From Sedimentisphaeraceae bacterium JB056 (GTDB taxonomy: Bacteria > Planctomycetota > Phycisphaerae > Sedimentisphaerales > Sedimentisphaeraceae), in assembly GCA_044440125.1 (NCBI GenBank), contig JBITAJ010000012.1:32001-96000 (forward strand): a stretch of 64,000 bases of DNA, in the 5' to 3' direction. The notes under the pieces are model-generated. The model saw only the letters and a list, made by a program, of their open reading frames with translations. It searched no databases and was not told the DNA's origin. A program made the position numbers and the translations under genes. Below, one piece after another: positions 941 to 63,277 of this stretch (position 1 is its first letter; each line of letters opens with the position of its first letter).

Positions 941-941
941 A

Positions 942-7375: not shown

Positions 7376-7379
7376 TGTT

Positions 7380-7397
7380 TGATGTAACGCCACATCA
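7380..7397. promoter_or_regulatory. Putative LacI-type operator 1
   Basis: TGATGT-AACGCC-ACATCA imperfect palindrome with central CG, in the divergent lacI intergenic region. Confidence 0.65.
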
Positions 7398-7457
7398 GTT
7401 TTCAGTATAGCACTAAAATTGCGTTATTCAAGCAAATTTTTATTTTTTTGAAAAAAA

Positions 7458-7473
7458 GATTTGGCGTTAAATC
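7458..7473. promoter_or_regulatory. Putative LacI-type operator 2
   Basis: GATTTGGCGTTAAATC; its reverse complement GATTTAACGCCAAATC matches operator 1 core GATGTAACGCCACATC at 14 of 16 positions. Confidence 0.6.
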
Positions 7474-7505
7474 AAAGTTGATAAAAAAAGGAACGTAAGT
7501 ATATA

Positions 7506-8573
7506 ATGGGCAAGAGAAACTTATTAAATCTTCTGAAACGGGAAGGAATCGAGAGAGCAGAGTGTTATTTCACTTTGTGTCCTTCTCTTGAAGCCCAAAT
7601 GTGTGAGCATGTTGCTGATGCGGATTATCAGGACTACTTTGGCTTTTCGATGAGATATGTCGGGCAGCCGGTTTTATCTAAATCTGAATTTGATCCACTT
7701 TGCTATTATTCCGAAGTTCTTAAAGAAGGAACATGCATAGATCGCTGGGGTGTTGCACATTGCCCGGGAAGTGAAGAGGCAATGCATATGACTCAGATGA
7801 TGCACCCACTTTCGGGCAGTATATCGATGGAAACACTGGAGAATTACCCATACCCAGATTTTGCAACTGCCGATTACAGCCAGATTGAGGGGAATGTTAA
7901 GTCTTTTGCTGAGCGTGATATAGCTTCTTTTGCAAAAATGAGTGATATGGTTTGGGAGATATCCTGGTATTTGAGAAGCATGGAAGATTTGATGATGGAT
8001 ATGGCTGTTGATGATGAGAAAGCAGTGTATATTCTTGATAAGGCAACCGAATTAGCTTGCGTTCGTGCTGAGAAGTATGCTGCTCTTGGCGTTGATATTT
8101 TGCATACAGGCGATGATGTAGGCATGCAGCAAAACATGATGTTTTCAGTTGAATTCTGGCAAAAATGGTTAAAACCGCGTATGGCAAAAGTTGTTGAAAC
8201 TGCTAAAGATACAAATCCGAATATCTTGTTTTCGTATCACAGCTGCGGTTTTATTGAGCCTATAATCAACGACCTTATCGAAATAGGAGTTGATGTGCTG
8301 AATCCTGTACAACCTGAATGCATGGATTTTGAAGAAATTCACAACAAATACGGCAACAAGATTTCCTTTTGGGGTACTATAGGTACTCAGACAACTATGC
8401 CGTTTGGCTCGCCTGACGATGTGAGACGGGAAGTTTTGAGAAATCTTGATATTGCGGGTAAGAAAGGCGGGCTGCTTTGTACACCAAGCCACCTGCTTGA
8501 ACCGGAAGTACCTCTTGAGAATATATTGTCATACGTCAAAGCTTGCAGAGATTGGGAGCCAGATGTTGCATAA
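7506..8573 (+). CDS. UroD/MtaA-CmuA-fold protein (putative methyltransferase) 1
   Basis: 'GDDVGMQQNMMFS...YHSCG...IGVDVLNPVQPE...FWGTIGTQTTMPFGSPDDV...PSH'. Confidence 0.88.
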   Translation: MGKRNLLNLLKREGIERAECYFTLCPSLEAQMCEHVADADYQDYFGFSMRYVGQPVLSKSEFDPLCYYSEVLKEGTCIDRWGVAHCPGSEEAMHMTQMMHPLSGSISMETLENYPYPDFATADYSQIEGNVKSFAERDIASFAKMSDMVWEISWYLRSMEDLMMDMAVDDEKAVYILDKATELACVRAEKYAALGVDILHTGDDVGMQQNMMFSVEFWQKWLKPRMAKVVETAKDTNPNILFSYHSCGFIEPIINDLIEIGVDVLNPVQPECMDFEEIHNKYGNKISFWGTIGTQTTMPFGSPDDVRREVLRNLDIAGKKGGLLCTPSHLLEPEVPLENILSYVKACRDWEPDVA

Positions 8574-8680
8574 TGTAAAAAATATGAACAGTGAGACCTT
8601 TTAATGGTCTTAAAAGAATAATGTAGTATGCCGTGCGTGGCGGTGTATAGAGAGAATAACCAATTATCGGAGGCTAAGTT

Positions 8681-11600
8681 ATGACATTTAGCAAACAGTT
8701 ATTGAGAAATTTACTTATTGGATTATTGTTGTCGGTTTCAATAGCGACAGCAGAGACAAAGACGGTAACCATACCAGTTGCCGCGGATTGCGATATCAGG
8801 GAGGTTGTGCCTGATACAGCATACGGTATCAGAACTGATATGGTAGCAGCAACCAGCACAAGCTCCATGAAAATCTATATGCGGTTTAATCTGCCTGCAG
8901 ATTTTGCGGTTGCTTCTTCTGCCACAGTAAAAATGGTAAGAACGAGGGTTGCTTCAGCAACAACAAATCTCTACTATAATCTTTATGGACTCAATGACGG
9001 CGTGGCAGGTCAGGACTGGTTGGAAACTACCGGTTATGTTGATAATCCGGCAACTGTTCAGGATGGCCTTACATGGAACAATGCTCCGGCCAACAGTACT
9101 GGAAACACTTTTACTACTGACGCTCTTGCACTTGTCAATCTGGTTATGCTCCCGGCCGGTGATAATGGTGGGGCAGTTGGCAGCGAGCATGATTTTACAA
9201 GTCAGGGACTTGTTGATTTCCTCAATAGCGACACAGACGGCGTTGTTAATCTGATGATGAGCCGTCACAATACTACAAGTGCATGGGAAAGTTTTGCAGG
9301 AAAAGAAAATACAACATACAGCGGTCCTGTACTTGAGCTTACATATGATACTATAAATTCTAAAACTGTTGAAATAGTGGCAGTGGCTGATACTGATATA
9401 AGGCAGGATTCTCCTACATATGCAAAAGGCGACCGTACAGTTGCTGTAGTTCAGAATTCTTCAGGCAAGAACAAGAAGATGTATATAAAGTTCCAGCTTC
9501 CTGTCGATTTCGGTACTGCACTGGCTGTTGATTTCAAAATCGTACCTGAGATTAATTATAATACTTTGTGGAACTGGGAATATAATCTCTTTGGCCTTGA
9601 AGATGGTGCCGAAGGAAACGACTGGCCGGAAAGTTCTCCGGGAGAAATTCCAGGACAGTCATACATGTCAGGTGTTACTTGGGAAAACGCACCTGGTAAT
9701 GACCCTGCTACCGGAGCGATGACATCCGATGTTACAGAAAAACTTAATTCATTCAATATCTATTCAGAGGTAGGTGTTGATGTTACGGCTGTTTCAAGTC
9801 AGGCAATGGTTGACTTTATAAACACAGATTCTGATGGTTTTGTAACTTTAATCATGACAAGAACAAATCCAAGCACCGCATTGGATCAGCTTGCTACAAA
9901 AGAGAATACTACATATGCCGGTCCAAGACTTGTAATAACATACGAACCTATCGAAACGACAACAGTCACACTTTCTGCTGTTGCTGATACTGATATTCGT
10001 ATGGCTGCTCCTGATTATGCTCATTCAACCCGAACAGGTATGTGGGTTTCAAGTCAGTCAACCAATGGTATGAAGGGATATGCAAGATTTACATTGCCGA
10101 CTGATATCGGAAGTGTAGTTTCAAGTACTATAACATACAATAGAACAGTAGCGGCCGGTGCCTGGAATTCAACTTACGATATTTATGTATTGAATGATAA
10201 TGCCGTAGGAAATGACTGGCCTTCAGCAAACAGTGCAAGAAATCCTGGAGACCCTTACACAATGGGGCTTACATGGAACAATGCACCGGGTAACGATACG
10301 ACCAGCTCAATTTTGTTCGATACTGCGACTACTTCGATGCTCGGTGATTTTACTGTAGTGGGTACAAGTTATGGCGGAACCGTTGGTGATTCTTATTCGT
10401 TGTCGAATACTGCTTTGAATGATGCGATATCGGCAGACACAGATGGCGCCATTACTCTTATGATCAGTCGCCACTTTGGAGAGTCATCATCAATGGATGT
10501 TTTTGGTGTGGTTGAAACAGGTGCACCTGCGACATTGAGTATTACATATATCAATCAATGTGGTGAAAGGCTTCTTTCGGACGTTAATTATGACTGCACT
10601 GTTGACTATCAGGACTATGCCCAGATGGGTAACGACTGGTTGATAGATGATCCTAATTTCTTTACTGAAGCTAACAACGATGTATATCCTGATGGAGTTA
10701 TCGGTATTGCTGATCTTGACATGATGGCTCAGAGCTGGCTTGGATGTTCGCTTCCAGGCGACCCTGATTGTGATCAGTACTGGAAAGCAGAATATCTTGC
10801 TCCTGTAAAATATAATCAGTGGCGTAAAAGTTTTGATACATTCCCGATAGCAGCATGGGCTTATTTCACAAGATATGGCGGTTTGGCTTCTGAGTATCAA
10901 AGCTATTATGATGCCGGTCTTACTATGGTACAGACTGTTCCCGATCAGTATCAGACAGCGGTTGATGCCGGACTGTATCCGATAATGGGTACCTGGGATG
11001 CTCTCTACAGTAATTCAGCAAAGCTTGATACATTCATGGGCTATCCTACAGCTGTTGAAGAAAATCTCAGAGGCTTGTTCTTCAAAGATGATATAAGAGA
11101 TTTCCAAATACCTGAGATGGTAGATGCAACACAAAAAGTACTGCTCGAAGATGTTAGAGGCGCGATACCAATGGTGAATCTGCTACCTTCATTCGGTACT
11201 ATTGATGGCGAAAATTCCAACACATACCAAGAATATCTTGATTATGTAGATGAATACATCGATACTGTTCATCCTGCGATTCTAAGCTGTGCATATTATT
11301 GTCTTCTCAGCGATGAAAATGAAAGAGCGGGAACATATGACAGTCTTGAACTCAGACGTTCAAAAGCACTTGCTAACGGTATAGGCTTCATGGCATTCGC
11401 TATTGTAAACGAGCATCTTGGCTACCGCAGCCCAAGTGAATCCGATCTTAACTGGAAAGTATGGGCATCTCTGACATACGGTGCAAAGGCTATCTGGTAT
11501 TACAACTGGCGTATAGAACCCGACAGCAGTTTCGGTGAAGGTATGATAACTCATCTTGACGGAACACCTACGGATGTTTATTACCTTGCACAGTCTATAA

Positions 11601-38547: not shown

Positions 38548-38883
38548 ATGGTTTATGAAGTAACCCTATATCAGACCACTAAAGGCGATATTCCTGTTAG
38601 GAAATGGCTGTCGAAGCTGAATGTTACAACGCGGGATAGAGTCTATAGTAGGCTTATGCGAATTGAACAGGGTAATTTCGGAGATCATAAACAGATAGAG
38701 ACTGAATTGTATGAACTCAGATTTTTCTTTGATGGTGGGTTGCGAGTTTATTATACGGTTCAAGATGAAAGAGTTGTTGTTCTGTTTTGTGGAGGGAACA
38801 AAAAAAGTCAGAAGCGTGATATAAGCAAAGCTATCGCATTATTATATGAATATAAAAAGGAATTGAATGATGCCTCTACATAA
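38548..38883 (+). CDS. RelE/HigB-type toxin (addiction module killer protein)
   Basis: 'RIEQGNFGDHK...LYELRFFFDGGLRVYY...LFCGGNKKSQKRDI'. Confidence 0.9.
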   Translation: MVYEVTLYQTTKGDIPVRKWLSKLNVTTRDRVYSRLMRIEQGNFGDHKQIETELYELRFFFDGGLRVYYTVQDERVVVLFCGGNKKSQKRDISKAIALLYEYKKELNDAST

Positions 38884-39172
38884 ATTAGAAGACATAATTG
38901 CTGAAGATTTGAAAGGGCGTGATGGGCTTGAAAGTTTTCTTGATACTCTCCTTGAAGAGTATGAAACTACCGGAGATAAAGAAACTTTTCTGCGGCTGTT
39001 GAAGATCGCTGCCAAAGCTCGTGGCGGCATAGAAGAAACAGCGGTCAAGACAGGCCTTACCAAGCAGGCGATATACAAGATATTTTCCGGCAAGGGAAAT
39101 CCCACTTTCAACAGTCTTGTAAAAATAATCGAATCACTCGGCTACAGGCTGACCGTTAAACCCATCAACTGA
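38867..39172 (+). CDS. HTH antitoxin (addiction module antidote)
   Basis: 'AKARGGIEETAVKTGLTKQAIYKIFSGKGNPTFNSLVKI..SLG'; overlaps the toxin. Confidence 0.9.
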   Translation: MMPLHKLEDIIAEDLKGRDGLESFLDTLLEEYETTGDKETFLRLLKIAAKARGGIEETAVKTGLTKQAIYKIFSGKGNPTFNSLVKIIESLGYRLTVKPIN

Positions 39173-39619: not shown

Positions 39620-40417
39620 ATGTGTTCAAAGATTAAAGATACTAAAGATTGGATTTGTAAACATGTTGCAATAACTCTATTTATGGTAGTTGCATTTGTT
39701 GTGCTGCTGATTATGGGGTGGCTTTCTTATCCAAAAGATACGGAGTTTGATTTTGTTATAGCATGGGCTGCTCTTTTTGGCGGTATTGGTGGGATTGGTT
39801 CTTTGGTAACAAAAAATGAAGCTTTAAAACAAAATGACAATGCAAGGCTGAGCGATTCTCGTCAGGAGAGGCTGGCTTTGATTGCGTCTGATGTTCTCGA
39901 AAAGACTTATCTGGTACACCGAGCGATAACCAATATAACCTCTCCACTTTCATTTAAGGAAGAAGGCATTAAAACTACTGATGAAAAGGGTGAAGAGGTT
40001 AAAATAGAAAAAACTGACTTATCACAAGCAGAGATTTTTGCATATCGATTTCAAAAACATGATAAACTCTTTTCGAATTACTTTTCTTTAGACATCAAGG
40101 CAAAGGTGTATTTTAATAACGAGGTATATCAAAATATTCAAGATATGAAATCTGTTATTATTTTTATACGTTGTCATATAACCACATTATTAAGATATAC
40201 AAAAAAAGCGATTGAACAAAATCTTGCAGAGAATACCAAACAAATGCAACAGATAGAAGATGAAATTGAAGCTTTCTATAGTCCTGGTTTTGTGAATGAA
40301 TTGTTCGAAGAAAAGACTTCTTCTTCTTTTCAAAAAAATATAGAGACATTTAATACTGTATGTAAAAAACTGGAATTAGAGCTTAGTGGATATATAAGAG
40401 GAAAAGAAATTGACTAA
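39620..40417 (+). CDS. Hypothetical protein, two N-terminal TM helices plus helical domain
   Basis: 265-aa ORF with AGGA RBS in the AT-rich insert. Confidence 0.65.
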   Translation: MCSKIKDTKDWICKHVAITLFMVVAFVVLLIMGWLSYPKDTEFDFVIAWAALFGGIGGIGSLVTKNEALKQNDNARLSDSRQERLALIASDVLEKTYLVHRAITNITSPLSFKEEGIKTTDEKGEEVKIEKTDLSQAEIFAYRFQKHDKLFSNYFSLDIKAKVYFNNEVYQNIQDMKSVIIFIRCHITTLLRYTKKAIEQNLAENTKQMQQIEDEIEAFYSPGFVNELFEEKTSSSFQKNIETFNTVCKKLELELSGYIRGKEID

Positions 40418-40453
40418 ACAAAAAACGGACAATTATTTAAAGGAGTTGGTGTT

Positions 40454-40670
40454 ATGATAAAGAATGATGCAGAAAAACAGATAATTTTGGAATGGGTAAA
40501 TTGGAAAAACTAATAATATAACAAGCCCGTCTTACAATAACAAAGATGAGTTTTATCGTCACCGTCTTCAAAAAGTAACGCCTCAGTTGCTTACATTTCG
40601 AGTTGGTCGTGGATGTGATAAATGGCAAGATGTTCAGGCATGGATAAATGATTATGAAAACAAAAATTAA
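40454..40670 (+). pseudogene. Frameshifted small hypothetical gene (~71 aa if repaired)
   Basis: AAGGAG RBS; MIKNDAEKQIILEWVNWK, then an A5 run; the +1 frame stays open for 53 codons (…LQKVTPQLLTFRVGRGCDKWQDVQAWINDYENKN*). Confidence 0.55.
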
Positions 40671-40801
40671 TGATAGTTAAAGACAGATGGATTTATCGAT
40701 TAAGGATTTTAACGGCTGAATTAAACATGTTAAATTAATGGAGAGTTGTAGAATATGAATGCATATAAGCAAATGAGACTGTATTTGAAGGGGATATATT
40801 A

Positions 40802-41455
40802 ATGGAAACATGGCAGATGATTTTAGTGTTAGTTGTTATTGCTATTGTTGGACTTGTTTCTGAATATCACCAGATTAGAAAGAAACGTAAGAAGCTCAAG
40901 TTGGTTCAGGAGTTTCTGGGAAATTTTGATGAATGGTGTAGTTCTCAATGGAATGACAAACAACTTTATAATTGGATGATTAGTAAGTCTGAAATAATTC
41001 AAAAACAATTAGGTTATTCAGGCCTTATTGATTTACGTCTTCCTTTTGAGAAAGGCTATCATAAAAATTATCCTATAATACTAAATTCTATTCCTGCAAT
41101 TCAACGAGGGATATCAGATTTATATCTGAATAAAGAAGAAGTTGCAACTTATTGTCAAATGGTGGATGGTTGCCTTAGGCGTTTTATTGGTTCAAGAGAA
41201 GAATATATTAGTTATAGATTAAAGAAATTATATAATCCATTAAGTTTGTTTTGTAATGGTATTGGCGTAATTCTTGCTATTCCTGTCTATATGTTAGAAG
41301 AGTGTAAAATAATCAGTCCGAATAGATCTGAATTAATTACTGAGAGTAATTTTTTTGGTTTTATAAACTTAATAGCTTCATTAGTAACAATAGTAAGTGG
41401 ATCTATGGTTATTGTATTGGGTTGGGATAAATTTGTTCAGATTATAGGTTTTTAG
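40802..41455 (+). CDS. Hypothetical membrane protein
   Basis: 217-aa ORF with N- and C-terminal hydrophobic helices; AT-rich. Confidence 0.7.
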   Translation: METWQMILVLVVIAIVGLVSEYHQIRKKRKKLKLVQEFLGNFDEWCSSQWNDKQLYNWMISKSEIIQKQLGYSGLIDLRLPFEKGYHKNYPIILNSIPAIQRGISDLYLNKEEVATYCQMVDGCLRRFIGSREEYISYRLKKLYNPLSLFCNGIGVILAIPVYMLEECKIISPNRSELITESNFFGFINLIASLVTIVSGSMVIVLGWDKFVQIIGF

Positions 41456-41458
41456 ATC

Positions 41459-42208
41459 ATGAATATTAATACCAAAAACATGGATTTCTATCAAATACTT
41501 GAGTTGCATCCATACATGGATATAAAAGAACAATTTGAGGAAATAAAAGATGTTATTAATCTTTTACATGACAAACGTAAAGAGCTATATGGGAAAATAG
41601 AATCGATAAAAGTGTGCAAAAGTAGTTGTGAAGAAGCTAACTTAAATGGCATACAATATAAATCTGCTTACAAAGATATTGCTTGTAGTATGGCTGCTGT
41701 GGGTTTATTAGCACCATTTTTTGAGAGTTTATTTTCTCGTTCATTTGAATACATGCGTGATCAAGATGCTAATAGTCAGACAAGTAAACACAATAGATGG
41801 ATTTGCGCTAAGGAAAACAGTTGGGACTGTCATTATTATTTTGGAAAAAGCAATCATCCACAAAAGAATATTACAAAAGGCATAATACAGTTAGTAGAAG
41901 CAACTAACTTAAAAGATAGATTCCCTAATAATTTAGAAAGTATATTGTCCGCTCTTTTTGCTTATCGTAACAAAATGTTTGATGGGGGATATGAATGGGA
42001 GTTAAAGGATAGAGAAAAATTTTGGAAGCGTGTTGAAGAAAAATGGAATGTTGATAAACGTAAATGGTTTGAAAATGCAACTCAAGGTGATTGTATATGG
42101 ATGATATACATGTCTGATGAATTTATAAATGAGTGTCTTGAATGTATTAAGAAATGTATAACAGAGTTTTCGAGTATCTTTGATGAATTTAAGGGTAACA
42201 GAATTTAA
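41459..42208 (+). CDS. Hypothetical protein, possibly HEPN-like
   Basis: 249-aa ORF 3 bp after the upstream gene; 'APFFESLF' and 'LFAYRNKMFD'. Confidence 0.65.
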   Translation: MNINTKNMDFYQILELHPYMDIKEQFEEIKDVINLLHDKRKELYGKIESIKVCKSSCEEANLNGIQYKSAYKDIACSMAAVGLLAPFFESLFSRSFEYMRDQDANSQTSKHNRWICAKENSWDCHYYFGKSNHPQKNITKGIIQLVEATNLKDRFPNNLESILSALFAYRNKMFDGGYEWELKDREKFWKRVEEKWNVDKRKWFENATQGDCIWMIYMSDEFINECLECIKKCITEFSSIFDEFKGNRI

Positions 42209-46821: not shown

Positions 46822-48236
46822 CCGGCTACAATCATATTACGCCGCAGATAATCGAAGAGCTGGAAAAGATTGTCGGTTCTGAGTATGTGATTTATGGTGA
46901 TGTTGATAAGCTCGAGCCGTATTCGCATGATGAAGTGCCCGGCGCCGAATACAGGCATATGCCTGAGGTGGTTGTCAGGCCGAGAACTGCTCAGGAAATT
47001 TCAGCGATTATGAAGCTTGCCAATGCTGAGATGATTCCGGTAACGCCTCGCGGCGCAGGTTCGGGGCTTAGCGGTGGTGCGGTTCCGATTTATGGCGGAA
47101 TTGTTCTTTTGTGCGACAGGATGAATGAGATACTCGAGTTTGACGCAGAAAATATGATGATTACAGTAGAGCCGGGTATCATATCAAATGAGATTAACGA
47201 ATACCTCAAGCCGCATGGTTTGTTCTATGCAGGGTATCCAATGAGTCTTGAAACTTGCTATATCGGCGGCAATGTGGCGGAGAATGCCGGCGGCGGTAAG
47301 GCGGTAAAGTATGGCGTGACAAATCGTTATGTGCTTGGTATGGAAGTGGTTATGCCAAACGGCGATATTGTTGAATTTGGCGGCAAGCTGATAAAGGATG
47401 TTACCGGCTATAATATGCAGCAGCTTATGACTGGCTCAGAGGGTACGCTTTGTGTATTTACGAAGATAATCCTCAAGCTCCTGCCTTTGCCGGCTCATCA
47501 GGTGGATCTTTTGTGTTTGTTCAAGGATTCCCAGACTGCGATAGAGTCTGTAAGCAAGGTGATGACCGGCGGAATTATACCAACTTCGGTTGAGTATATC
47601 GATAAGACGGCGTTTGTTGCCTCTTGCGAGTATTTGAATGAGACGCTTCCGTATAAGGATGCCGGTGCGATGCTGCTGATTACTATTGATGGTTTCAGTG
47701 AGCAGCAGGTTATAAGTGAGTATGAGGCGGTGGGCGAGAAGTGTCTTGAGCTTGGTGCGATAGAGGTTTATGTTGCTGATAATCCGACGACTACTGAGCG
47801 TGTGTGGAAGATTCGTCGCAATATTGGCGAGGCGTATAATATCATAAGCCGCAGACAGAGCGGGGAGGATATTGTTGTGCCGCCGTCGCAGATACCTCAG
47901 ATGGTGGCTAAGCTTGAGCAGCTTGCAGAGAAATATGGGCTTATGATTCCATGTTTTGGCCATGCCGGTGATGGTAATCTGCATGCAAGGCTGGTTTCTG
48001 ATCCTGCGTGGAGCGATGAATACTGGAAGGAGCTTTTGCCGAAAGTGCTTGAAGAGCTTTATTCGCTTACCGCGAAGCTTGGCGGTCGAATTTCAGGCGA
48101 GCATGGTATTGGAAGCAAACGCAAAAAGTATATGTCGAAAGTAGTCAGCGAAGAGTATCTAAATACTCTGCGGGCAATCAAAAAGGCCCTCGACCCCAAA
48201 GATATCCTGAATCCCGGCAAGATATTTGATGTGTAA
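46818..48236 (+). CDS. FAD-linked 2-hydroxyacid dehydrogenase (GlcD/LctD-like)
   Basis: 'PRGAGSGLSGG', 'IGGNVAENAGG', 'GSEGTL', 'GHAGDGNLH', 'SGEHGIG', 'LNPGK'. Confidence 0.92.
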   Translation: MTGYNHITPQIIEELEKIVGSEYVIYGDVDKLEPYSHDEVPGAEYRHMPEVVVRPRTAQEISAIMKLANAEMIPVTPRGAGSGLSGGAVPIYGGIVLLCDRMNEILEFDAENMMITVEPGIISNEINEYLKPHGLFYAGYPMSLETCYIGGNVAENAGGGKAVKYGVTNRYVLGMEVVMPNGDIVEFGGKLIKDVTGYNMQQLMTGSEGTLCVFTKIILKLLPLPAHQVDLLCLFKDSQTAIESVSKVMTGGIIPTSVEYIDKTAFVASCEYLNETLPYKDAGAMLLITIDGFSEQQVISEYEAVGEKCLELGAIEVYVADNPTTTERVWKIRRNIGEAYNIISRRQSGEDIVVPPSQIPQMVAKLEQLAEKYGLMIPCFGHAGDGNLHARLVSDPAWSDEYWKELLPKVLEELYSLTAKLGGRISGEHGIGSKRKKYMSKVVSEEYLNTLRAIKKALDPKDILNPGKIFDV

Positions 48237-48333
48237 AGACATCATAAGGGGAGTTGCATTTCGGCATTTAGCTTGACTTTTAGTGTTGTTTATAGTACTG
48301 TTAATAATGTGATTAGTAATATTATTAATAGGT

Positions 48334-48594
48334 GTGAAAATGATATCTATAACGTCAAATGAATTGAAAACGAGGGGAGTCTCTGCTATAAAAGGGCTGC
48401 TTAAGGATAATCCCGAAGCCGCTATAACCGTACGTGGCAAGGCTGAATATGTCGTACTGAAGATGGACGATTTTATTCATTACAGAGAACTGGAGCTTGA
48501 ACAGGCACTTTATGAGACTCGCAAGGAAATCAATGAAGGTAAGTTTGCCAAGTCCAGCGTTGAAGAGCATTTAAAGGATATTGGTGATGTATGA
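48334..48594 (+). CDS. Phd/YefM-type antitoxin
   Basis: 'ITSNELKTRGVS...ITVRGKAEYVVL...ELEQALYE'. Confidence 0.85.
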   Translation: MKMISITSNELKTRGVSAIKGLLKDNPEAAITVRGKAEYVVLKMDDFIHYRELELEQALYETRKEINEGKFAKSSVEEHLKDIGDV

Positions 48595-48859
48595 GATTAT
48601 TTATACTCACCGTTATGTAAAACTTGCCAAGAGATTTTTCAAAAAACATCCTGATCTGCTTGAGCGTTACAGAAAGACTCTTCTGCTTCTTGAGGCAGAC
48701 CCTTACCACAAATCACTCCGAATTCATAAGCTTACCGGTCGGCTTGAAGGGATTTTTTCGGTTTCTATCAATATGAAATATCGGATTACAATCGAATTTA
48801 TCATTGATGAAAAGACCATAATTCCTGTAAGTATTGGCTCTCACTCTGAAATTTATTGA
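48581..48859 (+). CDS. RelE/YafQ-type toxin
   Basis: 'DPYHKSLRIHKLTGRLEGIFSVSINMKYRI...IGSHSEIY'. Confidence 0.88.
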   Translation: MVMYEIIYTHRYVKLAKRFFKKHPDLLERYRKTLLLLEADPYHKSLRIHKLTGRLEGIFSVSINMKYRITIEFIIDEKTIIPVSIGSHSEIY

Positions 48860-48930: not shown

Positions 48931-49052
48931 TATGGCATCAGCAGCGCCGCATATTACAAATGGCGTAGCAAATTTGGTAATATGGAAGCCTCTGATATCA
49001 AACGCATGCGTTAGCTTGAACATGAAAACTTTTGTCTCAAGCATATGCCGAT
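48931..49052 (+). mobile_element. Decayed IS3-family OrfA fragment
   Basis: Translates as YGISSAAYYKWRSKFGNMEASDIKRMR*LEHENFCLKHM, the typical IS3 OrfA HTH/leucine-zipper pattern, with an in-frame stop. Confidence 0.8.
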
Positions 49053-49100
49053 TCCAGCAAGCTGATTGCTAAGCCCAAGGAGCTTGCATCCAGATATGTT

Positions 49101-50585
49101 TCATTTTTTATTATGTCTAATTGACATAATAACTCCAGCAATAATAGATAGTAACATCACTCCCCAGCCACCAATTATTATAGAAGAAGGGGAATATCCT
49201 GAATACCAGCCAGAAAATTCATTAATAAATTTTGAACCAAATACAAAGATTAGAATTATTGGTATAAAATAAACGATAATAACCTTGGCTATTTTAAGTA
49301 AGTAAACTTTTTTTAATGAGATCGTATTGTTTAGAGTAAATTTTGTTAAAGTGAATTGTCCAAAAATTATACATTCTAGTATTACAATAGCTGCGATGCT
49401 GTAATAAGCAATCCAATGATCAATTATGTCTAACCAATAAAGACCACTGCCAGTGGTGAAAATTAAACTGCCGCCAAATCCTAATAAGCATATTATGCCT
49501 GCCAATATACTCTTTGATTTTGTCCTTGCAGATAAATCGTCACAGCCAGCGACAATTGCTTCAACTGCAGCAAAAACGCTGTCAATTCCTAATGAAACCA
49601 AAATGACGAAAAATATGATACCCCATAAAGGTGCAAATGGAAGATTTGATATTGCCATTGGGTAGGATACAAAAGCAAGAAAAATGCCATCCAGTTTAAG
49701 GTCAGAAATATTAACACCTGCAGAATGTGCTAAAAACCCCATTGTCGAAAAGACTGTAATGCCTGCAAGTAAACTAAAAAAGACATCAAAACAACAGATT
49801 GTAATTCCAGATTTAATGAGTGCAGAATCTTGTTTTCTTCTGCTTGCGTAAGCTATAACTTGTCCCATGCCTAAACTCATAGATAACATTACCTGAGATG
49901 CAGCAGCAGCCCAAACAGAAATATTGAACATTTTACCGCTTTGAGGTCTGAGAAAATAAGCTACGCCATTTTTAGAACCAGGCATTGTGAAGTTTTCGAA
50001 TATAAATACTATTAGTAAAATAGCCGGCAGTGGTACTGTAATTAATAAAATTTTTGACAATGTTTTTGTTTTTGATCTTGAAATCAAATAAACTCCGCCC
50101 CATACCAAAGCAAGTGCTAATACTGTAGCAAGATTTATTCCTCCTAACTGAAAAGGACCATCTGACATCTTTACAACTTTATCAAGGAAAAATGAAGCAG
50201 GGTCTTTACCCCATGCTTCTGAAAAACTATAAAAAATATATTCTATGCTCCAAGCCAATACAACAGAATAATAAAATAGTATAACTAATGAATTTATTAA
50301 TGCCCACCATCCAATCCAAGTCCATCGCTTATTAATATTTTGAAAAGCAGTTGCTATCGAATTACCCTTTTTACCCATTATTATTTCCAATAGCATAATT
50401 GGTAAGGCAATCAGAAGCATGCAAATAAGATATGGTATAAGAAATGTTCCTCCACCATTTTCATATGCCATATAAGGAAATCTCCAAAGATTACCTACGC
50501 CAACAGCTGCACCAACGCAAGCTAAAATAAAAAAGATTTCTTTAGGCCAAAACTCTCTAATTTTTTTCTTTTTTAATTCAGACAT
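49101..50585 (-). CDS. Sodium-dependent transporter, NSS/SLC6 (LeuT) family
   Basis: 'GAAVGVGNLWRFPYMAYENGGGTFLIPY', 'LAFVSYP', 'LGIDS', 'LDIIDHW'. Confidence 0.95.
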   Translation of the reverse strand: MSELKKKKIREFWPKEIFFILACVGAAVGVGNLWRFPYMAYENGGGTFLIPYLICMLLIALPIMLLEIIMGKKGNSIATAFQNINKRWTWIGWWALINSLVILFYYSVVLAWSIEYIFYSFSEAWGKDPASFFLDKVVKMSDGPFQLGGINLATVLALALVWGGVYLISRSKTKTLSKILLITVPLPAILLIVFIFENFTMPGSKNGVAYFLRPQSGKMFNISVWAAAASQVMLSMSLGMGQVIAYASRRKQDSALIKSGITICCFDVFFSLLAGITVFSTMGFLAHSAGVNISDLKLDGIFLAFVSYPMAISNLPFAPLWGIIFFVILVSLGIDSVFAAVEAIVAGCDDLSARTKSKSILAGIICLLGFGGSLIFTTGSGLYWLDIIDHWIAYYSIAAIVILECIIFGQFTLTKFTLNNTISLKKVYLLKIAKVIIVYFIPIILIFVFGSKFINEFSGWYSGYSPSSIIIGGWGVMLLSIIAGVIMSIRHNKK

Positions 50586-50587
50586 CC

Positions 50588-50749
50588 TTAAAGCTCATTC
50601 CTAATTTCATAATCAGAGAGTTTTTCATTCTCGCAAATCGAACGTGCAGTGTGGCGATTTATAATTATACTTACTATTTTTTGCACATCATCTTCTGGTA
50701 TGTCTACAAGATCTACTAAAGATTCAACAAGTAATTGTTTATTGTTCAT
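50588..50749 (-). CDS. Small 53-aa protein (not in the ORF track)
   Basis: MNNKQLLVESLVDLVDIPEDDVQKIVSIIINRHTARSICENEKLSDYEIRNEL*; ATGA overlap with the upstream stop; its own stop is 2 bp before the transporter ATG. Confidence 0.7.
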   Translation of the reverse strand: MNNKQLLVESLVDLVDIPEDDVQKIVSIIINRHTARSICENEKLSDYEIRNEL

Positions 50750-51879
50750 CTTTCATTGTCCTTAAACATAAGGTTAGTATTAAATGGTAATCTTGTTGTA
50801 TCTCGACTTAACAAGGTTACTATATTTAATTTTCTATCTTTACTATATTTACATAAATAAGTTGAAATTAAGTCTGTTGTTCTTCGTGATTTTACTTCAA
50901 TTGCAATATCTTTCATTTCAAATGCTTCTGTTTTCTCTCTTGGTTCATACATGAAAATTTGAGCAAAAGAGAAACTATATTTTTTGAGAAACTTGATATT
51001 TTCCTGATGGTCCATTTCTGTTTCAGAAGGAAACCCTGCCATAATATCAGTTGAAATATTTTTTACACCATACGATAATAGAGTATTATAAACGGTATAG
51101 AAATTTTCCAAAGAATATTCTCTTCTCATTTTTCTTAAAATCTTATTACTTGCTGATTGGATTGGAATGTGTATATTTCCAGTAATATTGTTATGGGAAA
51201 GTAAAGCTATATCATCAAATTTGCTTTCAAGGAGCCATTTGATACCGATTGGTCCTAACTTTATTTTCTGTGTTGGGTATTTCTGAAAGACATATTTTAG
51301 TAATTGCCATATATCTGTATCTTTATCTAAACCATATGCTCCAATATCTTGTCCTACAAACTTGATATATGCTAATGATGAAGATTTTTCTATATCTTTA
51401 CAAATATCACCGATATCTCTGCTTAGATGTCTTCCGCGTGCTAATTTTACAGAACAATAAGCACAATTTCCATAGCATCCTTCAGATATTGTTATATTCT
51501 GTATTGGATTTAGAGTGGATACTATTTCCAAAGGGGTTAGATGAAAATATTTCGAAATAAAATTTTGTATTTCACCTTTTTTGATGTAATGCAATTTATT
51601 GTTTTTGTGTTTTTTTCTCAGGAAACAACCCGATGCTATAATCAGATGAAAATTTTTATACTCGTAAATATCGTTAAGTAATTTTTCGAATTCATGTTCT
51701 TTTTGCATACTGAAGGTGCAACCTAATATTATAAATATATCAGCAATTTCAGAATCAACCTCGCTTAAGCCTAAAACATTGAGTTCATCTTTAATGACAT
51801 TGGCATCATATTCTAAGCACCCACATCCGTTGTGTATTATACAGTAGCCAGATATATTGTTTTTTGATTTACAGCTCAT
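50746..51879 (-). CDS. Radical-SAM methylthiotransferase-family protein lacking a TRAM domain
   Basis: UPF0004 cysteines 'NGC', 'LGCT', 'SGC'; CxxxCxxC 'EGCYGNCAYC'; 'GQDIGAYG', 'HIPIQSAS', 'TDIMAGFPSET'. Confidence 0.9.
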   Translation of the reverse strand: MSCKSKNNISGYCIIHNGCGCLEYDANVIKDELNVLGLSEVDSEIADIFIILGCTFSMQKEHEFEKLLNDIYEYKNFHLIIASGCFLRKKHKNNKLHYIKKGEIQNFISKYFHLTPLEIVSTLNPIQNITISEGCYGNCAYCSVKLARGRHLSRDIGDICKDIEKSSSLAYIKFVGQDIGAYGLDKDTDIWQLLKYVFQKYPTQKIKLGPIGIKWLLESKFDDIALLSHNNITGNIHIPIQSASNKILRKMRREYSLENFYTVYNTLLSYGVKNISTDIMAGFPSETEMDHQENIKFLKKYSFSFAQIFMYEPREKTEAFEMKDIAIEVKSRRTTDLISTYLCKYSKDRKLNIVTLLSRDTTRLPFNTNLMFKDNER

Positions 51880-53437
51880 TTTTAAGCTCGCTAATAAATT
51901 GCCCTTTTCCTGCGCATCGCAAAAGATGCAAAGGATGGTATTTATTTTTTGTTTCTTTTGCTAGGCATCCAATATTGCCGATATAGTTTGATAAGTTATG
52001 TATTGCGCTTTTACCTTTCATATCATTTGGTTCTTCATTGTTACTATGATTGGCTAAAACAACCTTTTCCTGAAGTTTTATTGCAAATTTTTTTAAATTT
52101 TCATGATAGCATTCTGCAATATCTTCTACCGCTTTTAATGGAATATGAAATCCATTTTCGAAATGATTTTTGTGTTGTTTTTTCTCGTGTAATTCTTTGT
52201 TAATCGGGTAGTAAGCGATTCTGTTGGTTAAATCCAATCCTCCACCCCAAATGCGTATATTCTGGTTTTGAAACATCACCGCACAATCTATTGTAGGTTT
52301 TATTTTGCCTGGTTCTATTAACATTTTGATCAATGCTTTTTTAAGTGTTGCCAATGCATCGCAATAAGTTAGCTTGTTATTTTGCTTATAATCGATATTT
52401 CTTATTTCAGGTAACCCTATGTGTTTAAGGATGCCGTTAAAGTAATTTCTTTCTGACAATATGATTTCTAGAAAATCATCTAATGCAATCACTGCGATTG
52501 GCATTGACATCGCCAAATGTATCAACGATAATTCTTTTAATCTGTCAATTGTTCTATTGTTTGTTGCTACAATATCATGATAACATTCTGGGATGATCAT
52601 AATTCGAGATGCTATTGTTTCATTTTCATGGTTTCGTATTACTGAGTCATGTAAAGCAAGATGAACTTGCATATATGGGGAAAACCATTCAGATAAAGTC
52701 ATTTGTACATTTATAAATAAAGCTTCCTTGCAATTTTTTAAATCTGTAAGCATGTTATTTACAGTTGTGTAATGAATATCTTCTATTTCCTTTGGAGGTA
52801 TGTTTTCGCCAATAATTTGAGAAATATCATCTTTTAAGGTTTTTAGCTTTCCTTCAATTTCCTCTTTATCTTGAAAGTAATCTTCAAATTTTTTTTCAGG
52901 TTGATTATTTGTAGTCTTTTTTATTATTTCTAAAAATACTTCTTTTATATTGTTTAATGCTTTGGTGTCAATTTGTATATCGTCCGGATTTGCAATTTGA
53001 ACTGATTGAATATTTTTAAGAGGGCTGTTTATTTTTCTTCTATCAACACCAAAGTACATAATCATTGCATTCTTATTTTGGCTAGTCAATCGACCTAGTT
53101 CATAGAATAACCAAGGGGACGAAATGTTTTCATGTGTTACAAATAATAATCCTAGAGAACTATCATTTAGTTCTTTTTCTAAGTTTACAACCCAATTGGA
53201 ACCCATCTCAATGTCAACAAAAGACACAAAAGTATTTTTATTCTTAAAGGTTTCACTAAAGAAAGTATTGAATTTTTCTGTAAGTTGTTTGCTATATTGA
53301 CCTGACCAACTTAAAAAACATTTTCCTTCAGATTGATTAGTAGCTTTGCACATCTCTAACATTACCTCAATAATTCGTTTTAGCATAAATTTATGAGAAT
53401 TACAACGTAAAAAACTGCAAATTTCATTGTAAGCCAT
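51869..53437 (-). CDS. TIR-domain protein with unknown C-terminal domain
   Basis: 'CFLSWSG...DIEMGSNW...ELNDSSLGLLFVTHENISSPWLFYELG' (TIR_2-like, catalytic Glu retained); true start may be 53353. Confidence 0.85.
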   Translation of the reverse strand: MAYNEICSFLRCNSHKFMLKRIIEVMLEMCKATNQSEGKCFLSWSGQYSKQLTEKFNTFFSETFKNKNTFVSFVDIEMGSNWVVNLEKELNDSSLGLLFVTHENISSPWLFYELGRLTSQNKNAMIMYFGVDRRKINSPLKNIQSVQIANPDDIQIDTKALNNIKEVFLEIIKKTTNNQPEKKFEDYFQDKEEIEGKLKTLKDDISQIIGENIPPKEIEDIHYTTVNNMLTDLKNCKEALFINVQMTLSEWFSPYMQVHLALHDSVIRNHENETIASRIMIIPECYHDIVATNNRTIDRLKELSLIHLAMSMPIAVIALDDFLEIILSERNYFNGILKHIGLPEIRNIDYKQNNKLTYCDALATLKKALIKMLIEPGKIKPTIDCAVMFQNQNIRIWGGGLDLTNRIAYYPINKELHEKKQHKNHFENGFHIPLKAVEDIAECYHENLKKFAIKLQEKVVLANHSNNEEPNDMKGKSAIHNLSNYIGNIGCLAKETKNKYHPLHLLRCAGKGQFISELKNEL

Positions 53438-53582
53438 AATTTATATACAAAAATATATTAATAGACTATAGCAAATGTGCAATATTATTTTGGTATTTTT
53501 TAATAAGCTTATTAAAAAAATTAAATTGTATTAAAAGTAAACATAAGGTATAGTTTGGGGCTACTCTATAATTAGCCAAAAT

Positions 53583-53613
53583 GAATTGGCTAGTGTTATC
53601 ACATAGCCAATTC
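53583..53613. terminator. Hairpin at the island's right border, after the exonuclease gene
   Basis: GAATTGGCTA-N11-TAGCCAATTC. Confidence 0.45.
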
Positions 53614-53621
53614 TAAGACTT

Positions 53622-54302
53622 TTAACTGAGGTTTGGCATTCTTGAGAGGGTTTTGCCTGTTGGTTTGAGGTTGAAGTTTTCGCAGGTTGGCAGGGGTGAG
53701 TTTTCAAAGCTGTCGATGAATTTATAGCGTTTAAGTAGGGATAAGTGTTTGTATGTTTTGATGTTACGTTGCCTCATCTGCTCGAAATACACATCCATCA
53801 GCTTTGCTGAAGCCAAAGCATCAGCTCCGGCGGTGTGGGCATTTTCAAGCGTGATATTATGCTTCTGACAAGCGAGATCAAGGCTGCACCTATCGCCTAT
53901 ATCAAGCATCTTTCGCATGTACATAAGGCAAAAATGCGGTACTTCCCAGTCAACACCCGCCATAGCAAGCTCATGTCTGAGGAATTTGATATCGAAATAG
54001 ACATTATATGCCGCTACCATACAGCCCGAAAGTGAGTCTACAAAATCTCCGGCTATCTCTTCGAATACAGGAGCATCTTCAACGTCTGAGTTTCTGATGC
54101 CGTGAATATATGTTGCCCCAACGTTGCGGCAGGGGTTTACGAGCGTATCAAAAGCGATATAGGGTTCTTTGCCCGGTTCAACTTTTACAACAGATACCTC
54201 AACAACGCGATCGTTGCCAGGCATCATGCCTGTTGTCTCAAAGTCGATAACGGCTATCGGCAGTTCTTCTATGTTGTGGTTGTATACGCCTGATTTTGTC
54301 AT
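53622..54302 (-). CDS. DEDDh 3'-5' exonuclease (DnaQ-like)
   Basis: 'VIDFETTG', 'YNVYFDIKFL', 'AHTAGADA'. Confidence 0.92.
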   Translation of the reverse strand: MTKSGVYNHNIEELPIAVIDFETTGMMPGNDRVVEVSVVKVEPGKEPYIAFDTLVNPCRNVGATYIHGIRNSDVEDAPVFEEIAGDFVDSLSGCMVAAYNVYFDIKFLRHELAMAGVDWEVPHFCLMYMRKMLDIGDRCSLDLACQKHNITLENAHTAGADALASAKLMDVYFEQMRQRNIKTYKHLSLLKRYKFIDSFENSPLPTCENFNLKPTGKTLSRMPNLS

Positions 54303-56013: not shown

Positions 56014-56802
56014 TTATGCTACATCTCTGAGTTTTTGTATGCTCTCTGAGTCTTCCTTTTTACTCCATCGTATGTATTCTGCGCCACAACTATCTAATGC
56101 ATTAATATATTCGTCTTTAATTTCTGTCTCGATATCATTAATGACAGCCAAGCCTATAATATTCTTTTCTGTTTGTTTTTCTCTTACCCTTTTTATATCT
56201 TCCCATGTAAACAAAAATTGAGGCAAATTCATTTTATTAATTGAATTGAATGATTTAATTACTATTTCTGTTTTTTTGTATGCGATTTGAAAATCAAAAG
56301 TAAATTCTAACCCAGTACTTCCCTTTGATATGAAATGTGGAGTGTAGATTATTTCATGATCATCAAGATAAGATTTAACATCTTCCCTAAATACAGATGA
56401 TACAGTATGTTTTGCTAGGCAGTAAAGGTCATTAATTTCTGAAATCGCAGATATTATATTCAATTTTTTTTGCGGAAAATTTTTTTCATTTGCTTCAGCA
56501 ACAAGCTCTTTATCCAAAAGCTTAATGTCATAATTTAATAAAATTTTATCTAAAATCTGTTTTCTTTTTTGCGACCTCATTATTTCCATGCCATAAAGCT
56601 CTAAATTTCGTAATGTATTTCCATCATCAGATAGGAAAATTTTATTCTTGTCTTTTTTTGCATAAATATCTAATGTGTCATTGAATGAACTCGTGAACGG
56701 AGTACTTATTTCAACCCATTCAGAGCTGTTACTTGTAGAAAGGACAGTATTTTCCTTTAAGAATGAATAATAATTATTCATTAATTCTTCTATCCAGTTC
56801 AT
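56014..56802 (-). CDS. DUF1828/DUF1829-like protein
   Basis: 'EISTPF...DTLDIYA...LSDDG.TL..L'; 'GSTGLEFTFDF', 'FTWEDI', 'INDIE'. Confidence 0.75.
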   Translation of the reverse strand: MNWIEELMNNYYSFLKENTVLSTSNSSEWVEISTPFTSSFNDTLDIYAKKDKNKIFLSDDGNTLRNLELYGMEIMRSQKRKQILDKILLNYDIKLLDKELVAEANEKNFPQKKLNIISAISEINDLYCLAKHTVSSVFREDVKSYLDDHEIIYTPHFISKGSTGLEFTFDFQIAYKKTEIVIKSFNSINKMNLPQFLFTWEDIKRVREKQTEKNIIGLAVINDIETEIKDEYINALDSCGAEYIRWSKKEDSESIQKLRDVA

Positions 56803-57320
56803 TGTAACCTCATTTGTAAATGTAAGTCTATATTGGTACGAACATTAATTATATCAAAAAAACTTTTCAATACAGGTATTATACCATGCTGTCTACTAAT
56901 ATCTTTTATTCTGAAATTATCTTTATCTAATGGAATTGCCCAAACAAGTTGTTTATAACCATCAACAACATAGTGGATATGGCCAGGCTTTTTATCCAAA
57001 TATATGCCTGCATATGGTTTAAACTTTTCAGGAACAGATTCAAGAACAACTTCTGGATTTTTATGCCGTTGATGGTAGTCAATACGTAATAAACCGTGTT
57101 TTGTTATATCATCTAAATGGTGTAATGATATTTTAAGTGCCTTTTTTTCACTTTCTTTGATGTCTACAATAAATACTTGCTCTGAGTCATCGCTTGATAC
57201 AAGATCCAGTCGTAATCTTATTGGGCTTTCAAGTTTAATGATTTTGGTATCAATTATTTTACCTTTTTCAATTACATGTTTGTCCAGATTTATTAGATTT
57301 GTAGCTGTCTGTGCATCCAT
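56799..57320 (-). CDS. Hypothetical protein (DUF6978-like partner of DUF1828/1829)
   Basis: 'LLRIDY...HKNP...HIHY...WAIPL'; ATGA overlap with the downstream gene. Confidence 0.65.
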   Translation of the reverse strand: MDAQTATNLINLDKHVIEKGKIIDTKIIKLESPIRLRLDLVSSDDSEQVFIVDIKESEKKALKISLHHLDDITKHGLLRIDYHQRHKNPEVVLESVPEKFKPYAGIYLDKKPGHIHYVVDGYKQLVWAIPLDKDNFRIKDISRQHGIIPVLKSFFDIINVRTNIDLHLQMRLQ

Positions 57321-62552: not shown

Positions 62553-62619
62553 AGGAGCGTATTTTAAATGCTTTGGGATAATAGGCAAGTTTTTTTTATT
62601 TGAAATCAGAACTGATACA

Positions 62620-62638
62620 GTATATACTTCGTATATAC
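62620..62638. promoter_or_regulatory. Putative antitoxin operator
   Basis: GTATATAC-TTC-GTATATAC (both a direct and an inverted repeat) just before the AGGAG RBS. Confidence 0.6.
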
Positions 62639-62653
62639 ATAGGAGATACTGAT

Positions 62654-62881
62654 ATGATTAAAAATTTAACAAAACATGGTAATAGTTACGCTATTGTTAT
62701 CGATAAGCCCATACTTGAGCTGCTCAAAGCAACTCCTGAAACGCCGTTTGAGATAATTTCTGACGGCAGATCACTGGTTTTGACACCAGTAAGGACGGAA
62801 GAGCAGGAAGAAAAATTTGAGCAGGCAATGTCAATGATTCATAAAAGATTCGGCAAGGCGATGAAAAAACTGGCAGAATAA
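62654..62881 (+). CDS. AbrB/MazE-type antitoxin
   Basis: 'LTKHGNSYAIVIDKPILELL'. Confidence 0.9.
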   Translation: MIKNLTKHGNSYAIVIDKPILELLKATPETPFEIISDGRSLVLTPVRTEEQEEKFEQAMSMIHKRFGKAMKKLAE

Positions 62882-63277
62882 ATGGTACCACAGAGTATAA
62901 TTTTTCTCGATTTTGGCAAAATTCTCCGTATTCATAACGAATTAATAGCTCACTACGGAGGTTCGCACGGAATTCGTGATTCAGAGCTTCTTAAGTCTGC
63001 GGTAGAAATGCCTGTTGCTTCATTCGATGGTCGCTATCTTCATCAAAATATTTTTGAGATGGCTGCCGCTTATATGTATCACATAACACAAAATCATCCA
63101 TTCATTGATGGTAACAAAAGAGTTGGTGCTGCTTCAGCAATAATCTTTCTTTCAATCAATGATATTGAAATTGAAAATGATCAGGATGGGTTAATAGAAC
63201 TTAGTTTGAAAGTAGCTTCTGGTAAGGCCTATAAAGAACAAATTGCAGATTTTTTTAGAAAAAACGCAATTAGATAG
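62882..63277 (+). CDS. Doc (Fic-family) toxin
   Basis: 'HPFIDGNKR' motif; 'GGSHGIRD'. Confidence 0.93.
   Translation: MVPQSIIFLDFGKILRIHNELIAHYGGSHGIRDSELLKSAVEMPVASFDGRYLHQNIFEMAAAYMYHITQNHPFIDGNKRVGAASAIIFLSINDIEIENDQDGLIELSLKVASGKAYKEQIADFFRKNAIR

Follow-up and report, generated by a model that had tools for sequence, protein, structure and literature searches.

A mobile four-gene cassette joining a TIR protein, a TRAM-less methylthiotransferase, a small hairpin protein and an NSS transporter: a candidate conflict system in a planctomycete

We analyzed a stretch of 64,000 nucleotides of the genome of Sedimentisphaeraceae bacterium JB056 (GenBank assembly GCA_044440125.1, contig JBITAJ010000012.1, positions 32,001 to 96,000), referred to here as the window; coordinates follow its own numbering, and the evidence is computational throughout. 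Four co-oriented open reading frames (ORFs) on the minus strand span positions 49101 to 53437 in the ORF listing and form a compact cassette of ~4.3 kb. From 5' to 3', these are g1 (51869 to 53437), listed as 522 aa, which from its ORF, its PADLOC match, and its homologs is a putative effector protein with a TIR domain and a conserved C-terminal domain; g2 (50746 to 51879), a radical-S-adenosylmethionine (radical-SAM) methylthiotransferase of the MiaB/RimO family with 377 aa and no TRAM domain, according to Pfam, NCBIfam, and a clade alignment; g3 (50588 to 50749), a 53-aa protein recognized through its homologs behind g2 and predicted to be a helical hairpin with a flexible tail; and g4 (49101 to 50585), a sodium-coupled transporter of the NSS/SLC6 type with 494 aa. 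The genes are tightly coupled, with an 11-bp overlap between g1 and g2, a 4-bp ATGA overlap between g2 and g3, and a 2-bp gap between g3 and g4. The cassette has a G+C (GC) content of ~31% overall and of 28 to 38% per 500 nt across 49000 to 53500, against 45 to 49% in the core genes on both sides. An earlier inspection of the DNA letters (here, the sequence-only reading) had described these tightly coupled genes as more AT-rich than their flanks, and coordinates, overlaps, gap, and base composition all agree with that description. An AT-rich spacer lies 5' of g1 (53438 to 53621, minus strand) and is presumed to be the promoter region; scans of the locus with consensus promoter and terminator models gave sites no commoner than in shuffled sequences.

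The same four genes are found elsewhere. A metagenome collection was scanned with a degenerate pattern for one clade-specific motif of g2, which returned six loci (L089 to L094). A gene of the g2 clade is followed immediately by a g3 homolog of 52 to 64 aa in all six, g4 stands behind g3 in the five loci that extend past it, and the four complete loci have a g1 of 473 to 543 aa ahead of g2. L091 begins inside a C-terminal fragment of g1, which was recognized by a profile (E value of 5e-6 in a four-sequence search) and gave no BLAST match. The order g1-g2-g3-g4 is the same at all six loci as far as each contig extends, and the junctions range from -11 to +15 bp, save for two g4 starts that were probably called too long. 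The sequence-only reading had proposed a new conserved gene combination, and this co-occurrence bears it out. The six loci differ widely from each other, with g2 identities of 32 to 59% and GC contents of 34 to 55%. In L093, a high-GC copy of the cassette, a DDE_Tnp_1 transposase (159 to 1064, plus strand) is inserted between g3 and g4, and this copy is probably disrupted.

Trees built by maximum likelihood agree in topology between g2 and g4, and the tree of the g1 C-terminal domain is compatible with them, so the four genes travel together. The end branches have median lengths of 1.42 for the g1 C-terminal domain, 0.76 for g2, and 0.23 for g4; g1 is the fastest-evolving gene of the cassette and g4 is the most conserved.

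The cassette is horizontally mobile and rare. The g2 clade was absent from 40 related genomes searched together with the window's own genome, which alone was positive, and from 400 genomes of the phylum, where the next best match reached 195 bits versus 469 in the window's genome; the next-best matches in the phylum are frames of 388 to 600 aa, typical of ordinary enzymes. No member of the clade was found in the IMG/VR viral contigs or the PLSDB plasmids. A search of genome contigs with the g2 alignment gave ordinary MtaB/MiaB genes (25 to 37% identity) and no clade member among the matches listed, which is no evidence of absence. Cassette GC is under flank GC in five of the six loci with flanks (0.31/0.42, 0.37/0.47, 0.47/0.65, 0.34/0.45, and 0.54/0.63) and equal to it in L094. 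The L094 cassette (4683 to 9369) lies on a plasmid-like contig and adjoins a BsuBI/PstI-type restriction enzyme, an Eco57I-type methylase (type II restriction-modification [R-M]), ParA, and a RepA initiator, and the L090 cassette adjoins a large type II methylase fusion. The cassette of the window is enclosed by a toxin-antitoxin (TA) pair on one side and a DEDDh exonuclease resembling the PADLOC candidate PDC-S48 on the other.

The TIR domain of g1 covers approximately residues 39 to 170 (52928 to 53323, minus strand). It matches the PADLOC model TIR-TM (81.4 bits, 2.4e-23), and a phmmer search with g1 gave 706 proteins at an E value of ≤1e-10, mostly aligning to residues 39 to 170; the Pfam TIR_2 match is below threshold (22 bits, cut-off of 28 bits). 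As the sequence-only reading had pointed out, the domain keeps a catalytic-type glutamate, E113 in WLFYELG. The relatives P0124 to P0126 also have E at this position, and we take this residue to be the catalytic Glu of TIR domains. Judging from the sequence, translation of g1 probably starts at Met26 or Met29, as the TIR domain begins around residue 39 and the homologs begin 6 to 10 residues ahead of theirs.

The head of g1 is the part that changes from cassette to cassette. In pairwise BLAST comparisons of the g1 proteins, only the C-terminal 200 to 350 residues align, at 23 to 34% identity, and this is so even for the proteins of the window and L094, which are both TIR headed and yet align over the C-terminal domain only. 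Homolog searches with g1 and with the C-domain alignment, which were swamped by word candidates, gave two weak TIR matches and one true relative; a full phmmer scan adds the full-length TIR relatives P0124 to P0126 and the further C-domain relatives P0157 and P0215. The C-terminal domain, of ~300 aa, is common to the g1 proteins of the window, L089, L090, L092, and L094. Among the 10 full-length proteins that have it, 6 carry a TIR head (window, L094, P0124 to P0126, and P0215), 3 carry one or two hydrophobic transmembrane (TM) helices (L089, L090, and P0157), and 1 carries a SIR2_2 head (L092), which also matches PADLOC LmuA (2.5e-22) and ThsA (6e-17). The head of L094 matches the PADLOC ThsB models. 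L090 and L094 are the two most closely related cassettes and yet differ in their heads, TM and TIR, respectively.

The C-terminal domain of the window protein (approximately residues 219 to 466; 52040 to 52783, minus strand) was studied by alignment, AlphaFold2 (AF2) modeling, and fold searches. Its alignment has 16 invariant columns, among them the motif W-F-x-P-x-x-Q-x-H-L, an Arg, an I-H pair, and an Asp. The AF2 model has a mean predicted local distance difference test score (pLDDT) of 71.5 and a predicted template modeling score of 0.72, and it is confident over approximately residues 15 to 260 of the domain. In a fold search independent of Foldseek (VIA-align wide), PLD-superfamily folds occupied nearly all of rows 1 to 24, over ~115 to 168 aligned residues and with Z scores of 4.7 to 7.5, the tool's own note giving 7 to 8 as the typical best score for models with no clear match. 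The PLD-type rows comprise SauUSI, PLD, NucT, Zucchini, Nuc, PPK C-domains, FAM83, and the TrmB sugar-binding domain. An ESM-Atlas model of the same g1 protein led to PLDc_2 and FilR1_middle clusters at a TM score of ~0.3, and ESM Atlas gave no usable feature match for the domain. A profile built from the C-domain alignment matched only TIR chains in the PDB, through the N termini of some rows, and no solved PLD. With scores this middling, a PLD-superfamily fold is no more than probable. The catalytic motif of this superfamily is HKD, HxK(x)4D. It is absent from the conserved columns of the alignment, where an invariant His is found in Q-x-H-L-A and no Lys. This favors a derivative with a regulatory or ligand-binding task over a nuclease or lipase.

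The second gene has the catalytic parts of a methylthiotransferase. Pfam identifies a Radical_SAM domain (1e-13) and a UPF0004 domain (3e-7, 30.7 bits, cut-off of 27), with no match to TRAM (PF01938), and the TIGR00089 match covers profile positions 3 to 357 of 429. All NCBIfam scores are under their cut-offs: 189.2 bits against 251 for TIGR00089, 164.8 against 357 for MtaB, 121.6 against 355 for MiaB, and 114.3 against 357 for RimO. Compared with solved structures, the g2 profile matches MiaB (1.5e-49) and RimO (7e-46). The clade to which g2 belongs comprises 36 clusters of 310 to 385 aa that score 196 to 857 bits, after which the next match falls to 132 bits; one of them, P0016, has one named member, a Bacteroidales metagenome-assembled genome. 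None of the 36 has TRAM in the precomputed Pfam column. Residues C54, C85, C135, C139, and C142 are invariant in all 36, and C19 is kept in at least 90%; C135, C139, and C142 form the radical-SAM CxxxCxxC motif, and C19, C54, and C85 are the UPF0004 cysteines for the auxiliary 4Fe-4S cluster. The description of g2 as a methylthiotransferase without TRAM in the sequence-only reading was therefore right, and from its sequence the enzyme looks catalytically intact. TRAM is the domain with which the relatives of g2 grip their RNA or protein substrates, and given its loss, g2 probably acts on something other than tRNA. A precedent within the family is RimO, which methylthiolates a protein.

The small protein g3 has no Pfam, NCBIfam, or PADLOC family and no usable feature match in ESM Atlas, and its seven members share no Pfam family even at an E value of ≤5. 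Only M1, R36, and I38 are invariant across the seven, within a motif R-[S/P/A]-I-[C/T]-[E/N] for the last two. AF2 predicts two helices (residues 3 to 14 and 19 to 32, pLDDT of 84 to 93), with an unstructured tail from the motif onward (pLDDT of 43 to 64) that differs in length and sequence behind the motif. We also considered g3 as a split-off TRAM domain and rejected it. TRAM is a beta-barrel, g3 is predicted to be helical, and it is a separate ORF in a different register at all seven loci.

The last gene, g4, matches Pfam SNF over its full length (3.6e-97, 326.7 bits, cut-off of 27) and NF037979 (1.3e-21), and a crude hydropathy scan gives 10 hydrophobic segments. Its best solved relatives are the animal SLC6 carriers GlyT2, DAT, and GAT1 (~1e-64), and no bacterial LeuT-type chain appears among the best 60 of 104 structure matches. 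The window protein is 46 to 59% identical to the g4 proteins of the other cassettes, identities among all cassettes range from 46 to 78%, and the sole other NSS protein of the host genome is 34% identical to it. The TM1 motif reads A-A-V-G-V-G-N-L-W-R-F-P-Y. At one position of TM1, carriers of amino acids presumably have Gly and those of amines Asp; g4 has Gly, which is a lead on its ligand rather than a test.

Downstream of the cassette, on the plus strand (48334 to 48859), there is a RelE/YafQ-like toxin gene (48581 to 48859) with an overlapping upstream ORF of 86 aa; the pair is a probable TA module, its toxin matching Pfam YafQ_toxin at 26.5 bits, under the 30-bit cut-off. Between this pair and g4, a short remnant (48931 to 49028, no strand assigned) resembles an IS3-family transposase gene (74.7% identity over 98 nt, E value of 3e-6). 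The sequence-only reading had drawn the borders at an IS3 scar and a TA module; the TA pair is probable despite the sub-cut-off toxin, and the IS3 trace, of just 98 nt, is weak. Upstream of g1, the DEDDh exonuclease (RNase T family; 53622 to 54302, minus strand) matches PDC-S48 (PADLOC, 3.5e-52) and Pfam RNase_T (5e-20). The gene has a host-like GC (0.45), yet none of five genomes of the same family gave a match to it at an E value of ≤1e-10; exonuclease and cassette may be parts of one variable region. A candidate PDC-M24A/B pair stands 2.6 kb further on (56014 to 57320, minus strand), a two-gene islet with GC of 0.29 to 0.31 between the core genes NadE and LemA; it codes for DUF6978 and DUF1828/DUF1829 proteins that match PDC-M24A (3.6e-54) and PDC-M24B (1.3e-94).

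Synteny with the closest complete relative gave no insertion site, as the two flanking core genes are ~860 kb apart there, and no att-like repeats were found flanking the cassette. The sole direct repeat that spans the boundary (36 nt, 75% identity; 48202 to 48237 and 49194 to 49229) has one copy in the 3' end of an FAD-oxidase gene and the other within the 3' part of g4, and it is probably due to chance. Farther away in the window, we found two small addiction-type pairs on the plus strand, a Gp49/HigB-like toxin with a helix-turn-helix antidote (38548 to 39172) and a 93-aa ORF with a Fic/DOC protein matching the PDC-S23 models (62600 to 63277), and three plus-strand ORFs of 217 to 265 aa (39620 to 42208) with 30 to 33% GC and no Pfam family, one of which has a marginal PADLOC AbiZ match (6e-4); these three make up another foreign islet.

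Taken as a whole, we lean toward reading the cassette as a conflict or defense cassette with g1 as its controlled effector, most likely an abortive-infection-type system of an undescribed kind directed against phages or other mobile genetic elements. We assign g1 the part of the executioner and its C-terminal domain that of the switch because TIR, SIR2, and TM heads are exchanged on one conserved domain. Swappable heads on a single domain are the signature of abortive-infection output proteins, as in CBASS (cyclic-oligonucleotide-based antiphage signaling systems), Pycsar (pyrimidine cyclase systems), and Thoeris. The TIR or SIR2 head, as NADase, or the helices, by inserting into the membrane, would kill the cell, and the PLD-like domain without an HKD motif would turn this killing module on. 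The controlling signal for g1 would be made by g2 together with the translationally coupled g3, whose hairpin is of a docking type and whose conserved motif is exposed. The version that we put first here, at somewhat less than even chances, has g3 as the substrate, with its extended R-x-I-C-E segment methylthiolated by g2 in analogy with what RimO does to protein; alternatively, g3 could be an adaptor and the substrate of g2 a small molecule of the adenine or amino-acid type. The Na+ symporter g4 would bring in or remove a small, amino-acid-like (carboxylate-bearing) ligand or precursor. The role of g4 and the trigger are the weakest parts of this mechanism.

A more elaborate version would make the methylthio mark itself the message, in what would be a new class of immune signaling based on radical-SAM sulfur chemistry. 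The PLD-fold sensor would read this mark on the tail of g3, or else the amino-acid- or nucleoside-like molecule that carries it, and would fire the TIR, SIR2, or membrane effectors, and the SLC6-like transporter would pass the signal or its precursor into or out of the cell. Such a device could guard the integrity of S-adenosylmethionine, iron-sulfur (Fe-S) clusters, or membrane energy, which phages disturb, or it could serve as a community alarm taken up by neighboring cells. We regard this version as a long shot.

Several points weigh against a defense cassette ruled by g1. PADLOC-DB v2.0.0, whose library dates from 2023, has no match for g2 or g4. We know of no defense system that uses an NSS importer, so the role given to g4 is guesswork. 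Contexts are known for seven cassettes, and all six beyond the window came from one motif pattern, which covers ~20 of the 36 g2 clusters by a by-eye count on the alignment; among the remaining clusters, g2-g3-g4 may occur without g1. In L089 and L090, the helices at the N terminus might do no more than anchor the protein in the membrane and form no pore. Foldseek found no match for the C-domain model at an E value of <0.1, and the Z scores cited for the PLD fold are no better than those typical of models with no clear match. Finally, the Cys of the g3 motif is Thr in L091 and the tail is variable, which is atypical of a modified core peptide.

The explanation that fares best after this one is a TA-like addiction or stress-suicide module with no response to phages, in which g1 would act as the toxin. 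Its restraint would come from g3, from a metabolite that g2 makes out of what g4 imports, or from both, and killing would set in once the element is lost or metabolism collapses. The plasmid-like contig of L094, with its ParA and RepA, the adjoining TA pairs, and the tight coupling of the genes all fit such a module, and a small acidic or basic hairpin protein like g3 could serve as antitoxin. However, four genes, among them a costly Fe-S enzyme and a transporter of the 12-TM class, exceed the needs of addiction, and the high conservation of g4 across cassettes points to a real transport function. It also overlaps with the abortive-infection reading, as many abortive-infection systems are TA-like, and the main difference is the trigger. 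We consider a pure addiction module unlikely.

A biosynthetic origin, for which the sequence-only reading had left room as a peptide or metabolite cluster, deserves some weight as a minor rival since g3 is a possible peptide substrate. Here the cassette would make or take up a product resembling a ribosomally synthesized and posttranslationally modified peptide (RiPP) or a small metabolite: g3 would be the precursor modified by g2, g4 would transport product or precursor, and g1 would be a regulator or provide self-protection. A small gene directly behind a radical-SAM gene, coding for a leader-like hairpin with a floppy tail, is what such a cluster would have. However, no protease or peptidase, ABC exporter, RiPP recognition element, or SPASM domain is present in the window or in L089 to L094. 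NSS proteins are importers, and the g3 tail past the motif varies in both length and sequence. TIR, SIR2, and TM heads are typical killing modules and not immunity or regulatory parts, and the neighbors are R-M, plasmid, insertion sequence, and TA genes rather than biosynthetic ones. A precedent for a radical-SAM enzyme maturing a protein effector with a small partner is reported for HXS (PMC13128918), and still we judge the biosynthetic explanation quite improbable.

The mechanism that the sequence-only reading itself had favored resembles Thoeris: a signal of the ADP-ribose type would arise from NAD+ cleavage by the TIR, g2 would methylthiolate this nucleotide, and g4 would sense or move the product. 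Glu113 is retained, as this would require, and the nearest named families of g2, MtaB and MiaB, are adenine-C2 methylthiotransferases. What argues against it is the exchange of heads: SIR2 or TM replaces the TIR on the same C-domain in 4 of the 10 relatives, and one of these 4 belongs to a cassette that is sister to a TIR-headed one; therefore, the rest of the pathway cannot depend on a product of the TIR. Cassettes with TM and SIR2 heads keep g2 to g4, and a TIR that can be exchanged for a membrane anchor is thus an output (killing) module and not an obligatory maker of substrate. There is also no ThsA-type partner, as PADLOC gives no ThsA match for g2 to g4 or for the g1 of the window. This order of events is not supported, and a pathway of this kind seems very unlikely to us.

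That nothing special is present, and that a lone TIR gene merely happens to have a tRNA methylthiotransferase of the housekeeping kind and a transporter for amino acids as neighbors, is barely conceivable even if each family is common alone, given the same order at six independent metagenomic loci as far as the contigs extend, the congruent trees, a g2 without TRAM that falls under every NCBIfam cut-off, 440 related genomes that hold ordinary enzymes only, the foreign GC of the cassette, and the spread of g2 identities and GC contents, which speaks against the six loci being the DNA of one organism.

If the cassette is a defense system, it would bring three types of component new to bacterial immunity, namely, a methylthiotransferase, a transporter of the SLC6/NSS family to which the animal neurotransmitter carriers belong, and a noncatalytic PLD-fold switch, and it would give the MiaB/RimO family its first nontranslational job. 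It is open to experiment, as it offers mutational handles (TIR E113, the six Fe-S cysteines, and R36 and I38 of g3) and a mass-spectrometric prediction of +46 Da. If it is not a defense system, a conserved and mobile link of NAD-destroying or membrane effectors with a transporter and radical-SAM pair still calls for explanation.

The published record agrees with the statement of the sequence-only reading that no described system has this combination. Full-text searches of the literature gave none among the papers listed, neither a system of this kind with a methylthiotransferase in the context of anti-phage activity, TIR/SIR2, radical SAM, defense islands, abortive infection, or conflict systems nor one with an NSS transporter in an anti-phage context. 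The available text of a systematic TIR survey (bioRxiv 10.64898/2025.12.03.692087) and that of two further papers (PMC9503650 and PMC7159879) hold no mention of methylthio, MiaB, or a transporter/symporter in such a system, and their supplements could list such operons.

Taken singly, g2, g4, and the C-terminal domain of g1 can be compared with known proteins. Like MiaB, MtaB, and RimO, g2 has a UPF0004 domain, a radical-SAM core, and six cluster cysteines; unlike them, it has no TRAM and sub-cut-off scores, and it belongs to the accessory genes, as part of a mobile cassette that also provides it with a small protein as its own partner. With its full-length SNF match and the TM1 motif G-N-L-W-R-F-P-Y, g4 resembles the SLC6/NSS carriers GlyT2, DAT, GAT1, and LeuT, from which it differs in being encoded in a mobile conflict-type cassette. 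The best fold matches of the g1 C-terminal domain are PLD-superfamily domains (Nuc, the SauUSI N-domain, and Zucchini, together with the ligand-binding TrmB/FilR1), but it has no HKD motif and no sequence match to a solved PLD.

Radical-SAM enzymes are already known from phage defense, prokaryotic viperins being one group of such proteins. In HXS (HxsB/C with the small HxsD and HxsA), the enzyme is reported to mature a protein effector with a small protein alongside (PMC13128918), and Ophion is reported to consist of a radical-SAM protein with PHP and PRTase (bioRxiv 10.1101/2025.09.30.679545). What the cassette would share with HXS, Ophion, and viperins is a radical-SAM enzyme within a phage-defense operon. 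It is set apart from them by its radical-SAM subfamily, its partners, and its outputs; they are not known to have a methylthiotransferase, an NSS transporter, or swapped effectors.

The architecture of g1 is closest to that of signaling systems. In CBASS and Pycsar, too, a conserved regulatory domain is fused to interchangeable TIR or TM killing heads; unlike these, the cassette has no CD-NTase or cyclase, its only possible signal-making enzyme is the radical-SAM methylthiotransferase, and its putative regulatory domain resembles PLD rather than SAVED, CARF, or STING. Thoeris, with a ThsB TIR and a ThsA effector of the SIR2/Macro/TM type, is similar in its NAD-directed TIR and SIR2 modules, in the ThsA/LmuA matches of L092 and the ThsB matches of L094, and in a defense-island-like setting. 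In the cassette, however, TIR, SIR2, and TM are alternatives at one position of one protein, that is, outputs; no separate TIR signal maker and SLOG/Macro sensor are present and no ThsA model matches any gene of the window, and g1 is combined with a methylthiotransferase, a 53-aa protein, and an NSS transporter. We rate the composition of the cassette as categorically new, although a sensor domain with a swappable effector is a familiar overall logic.

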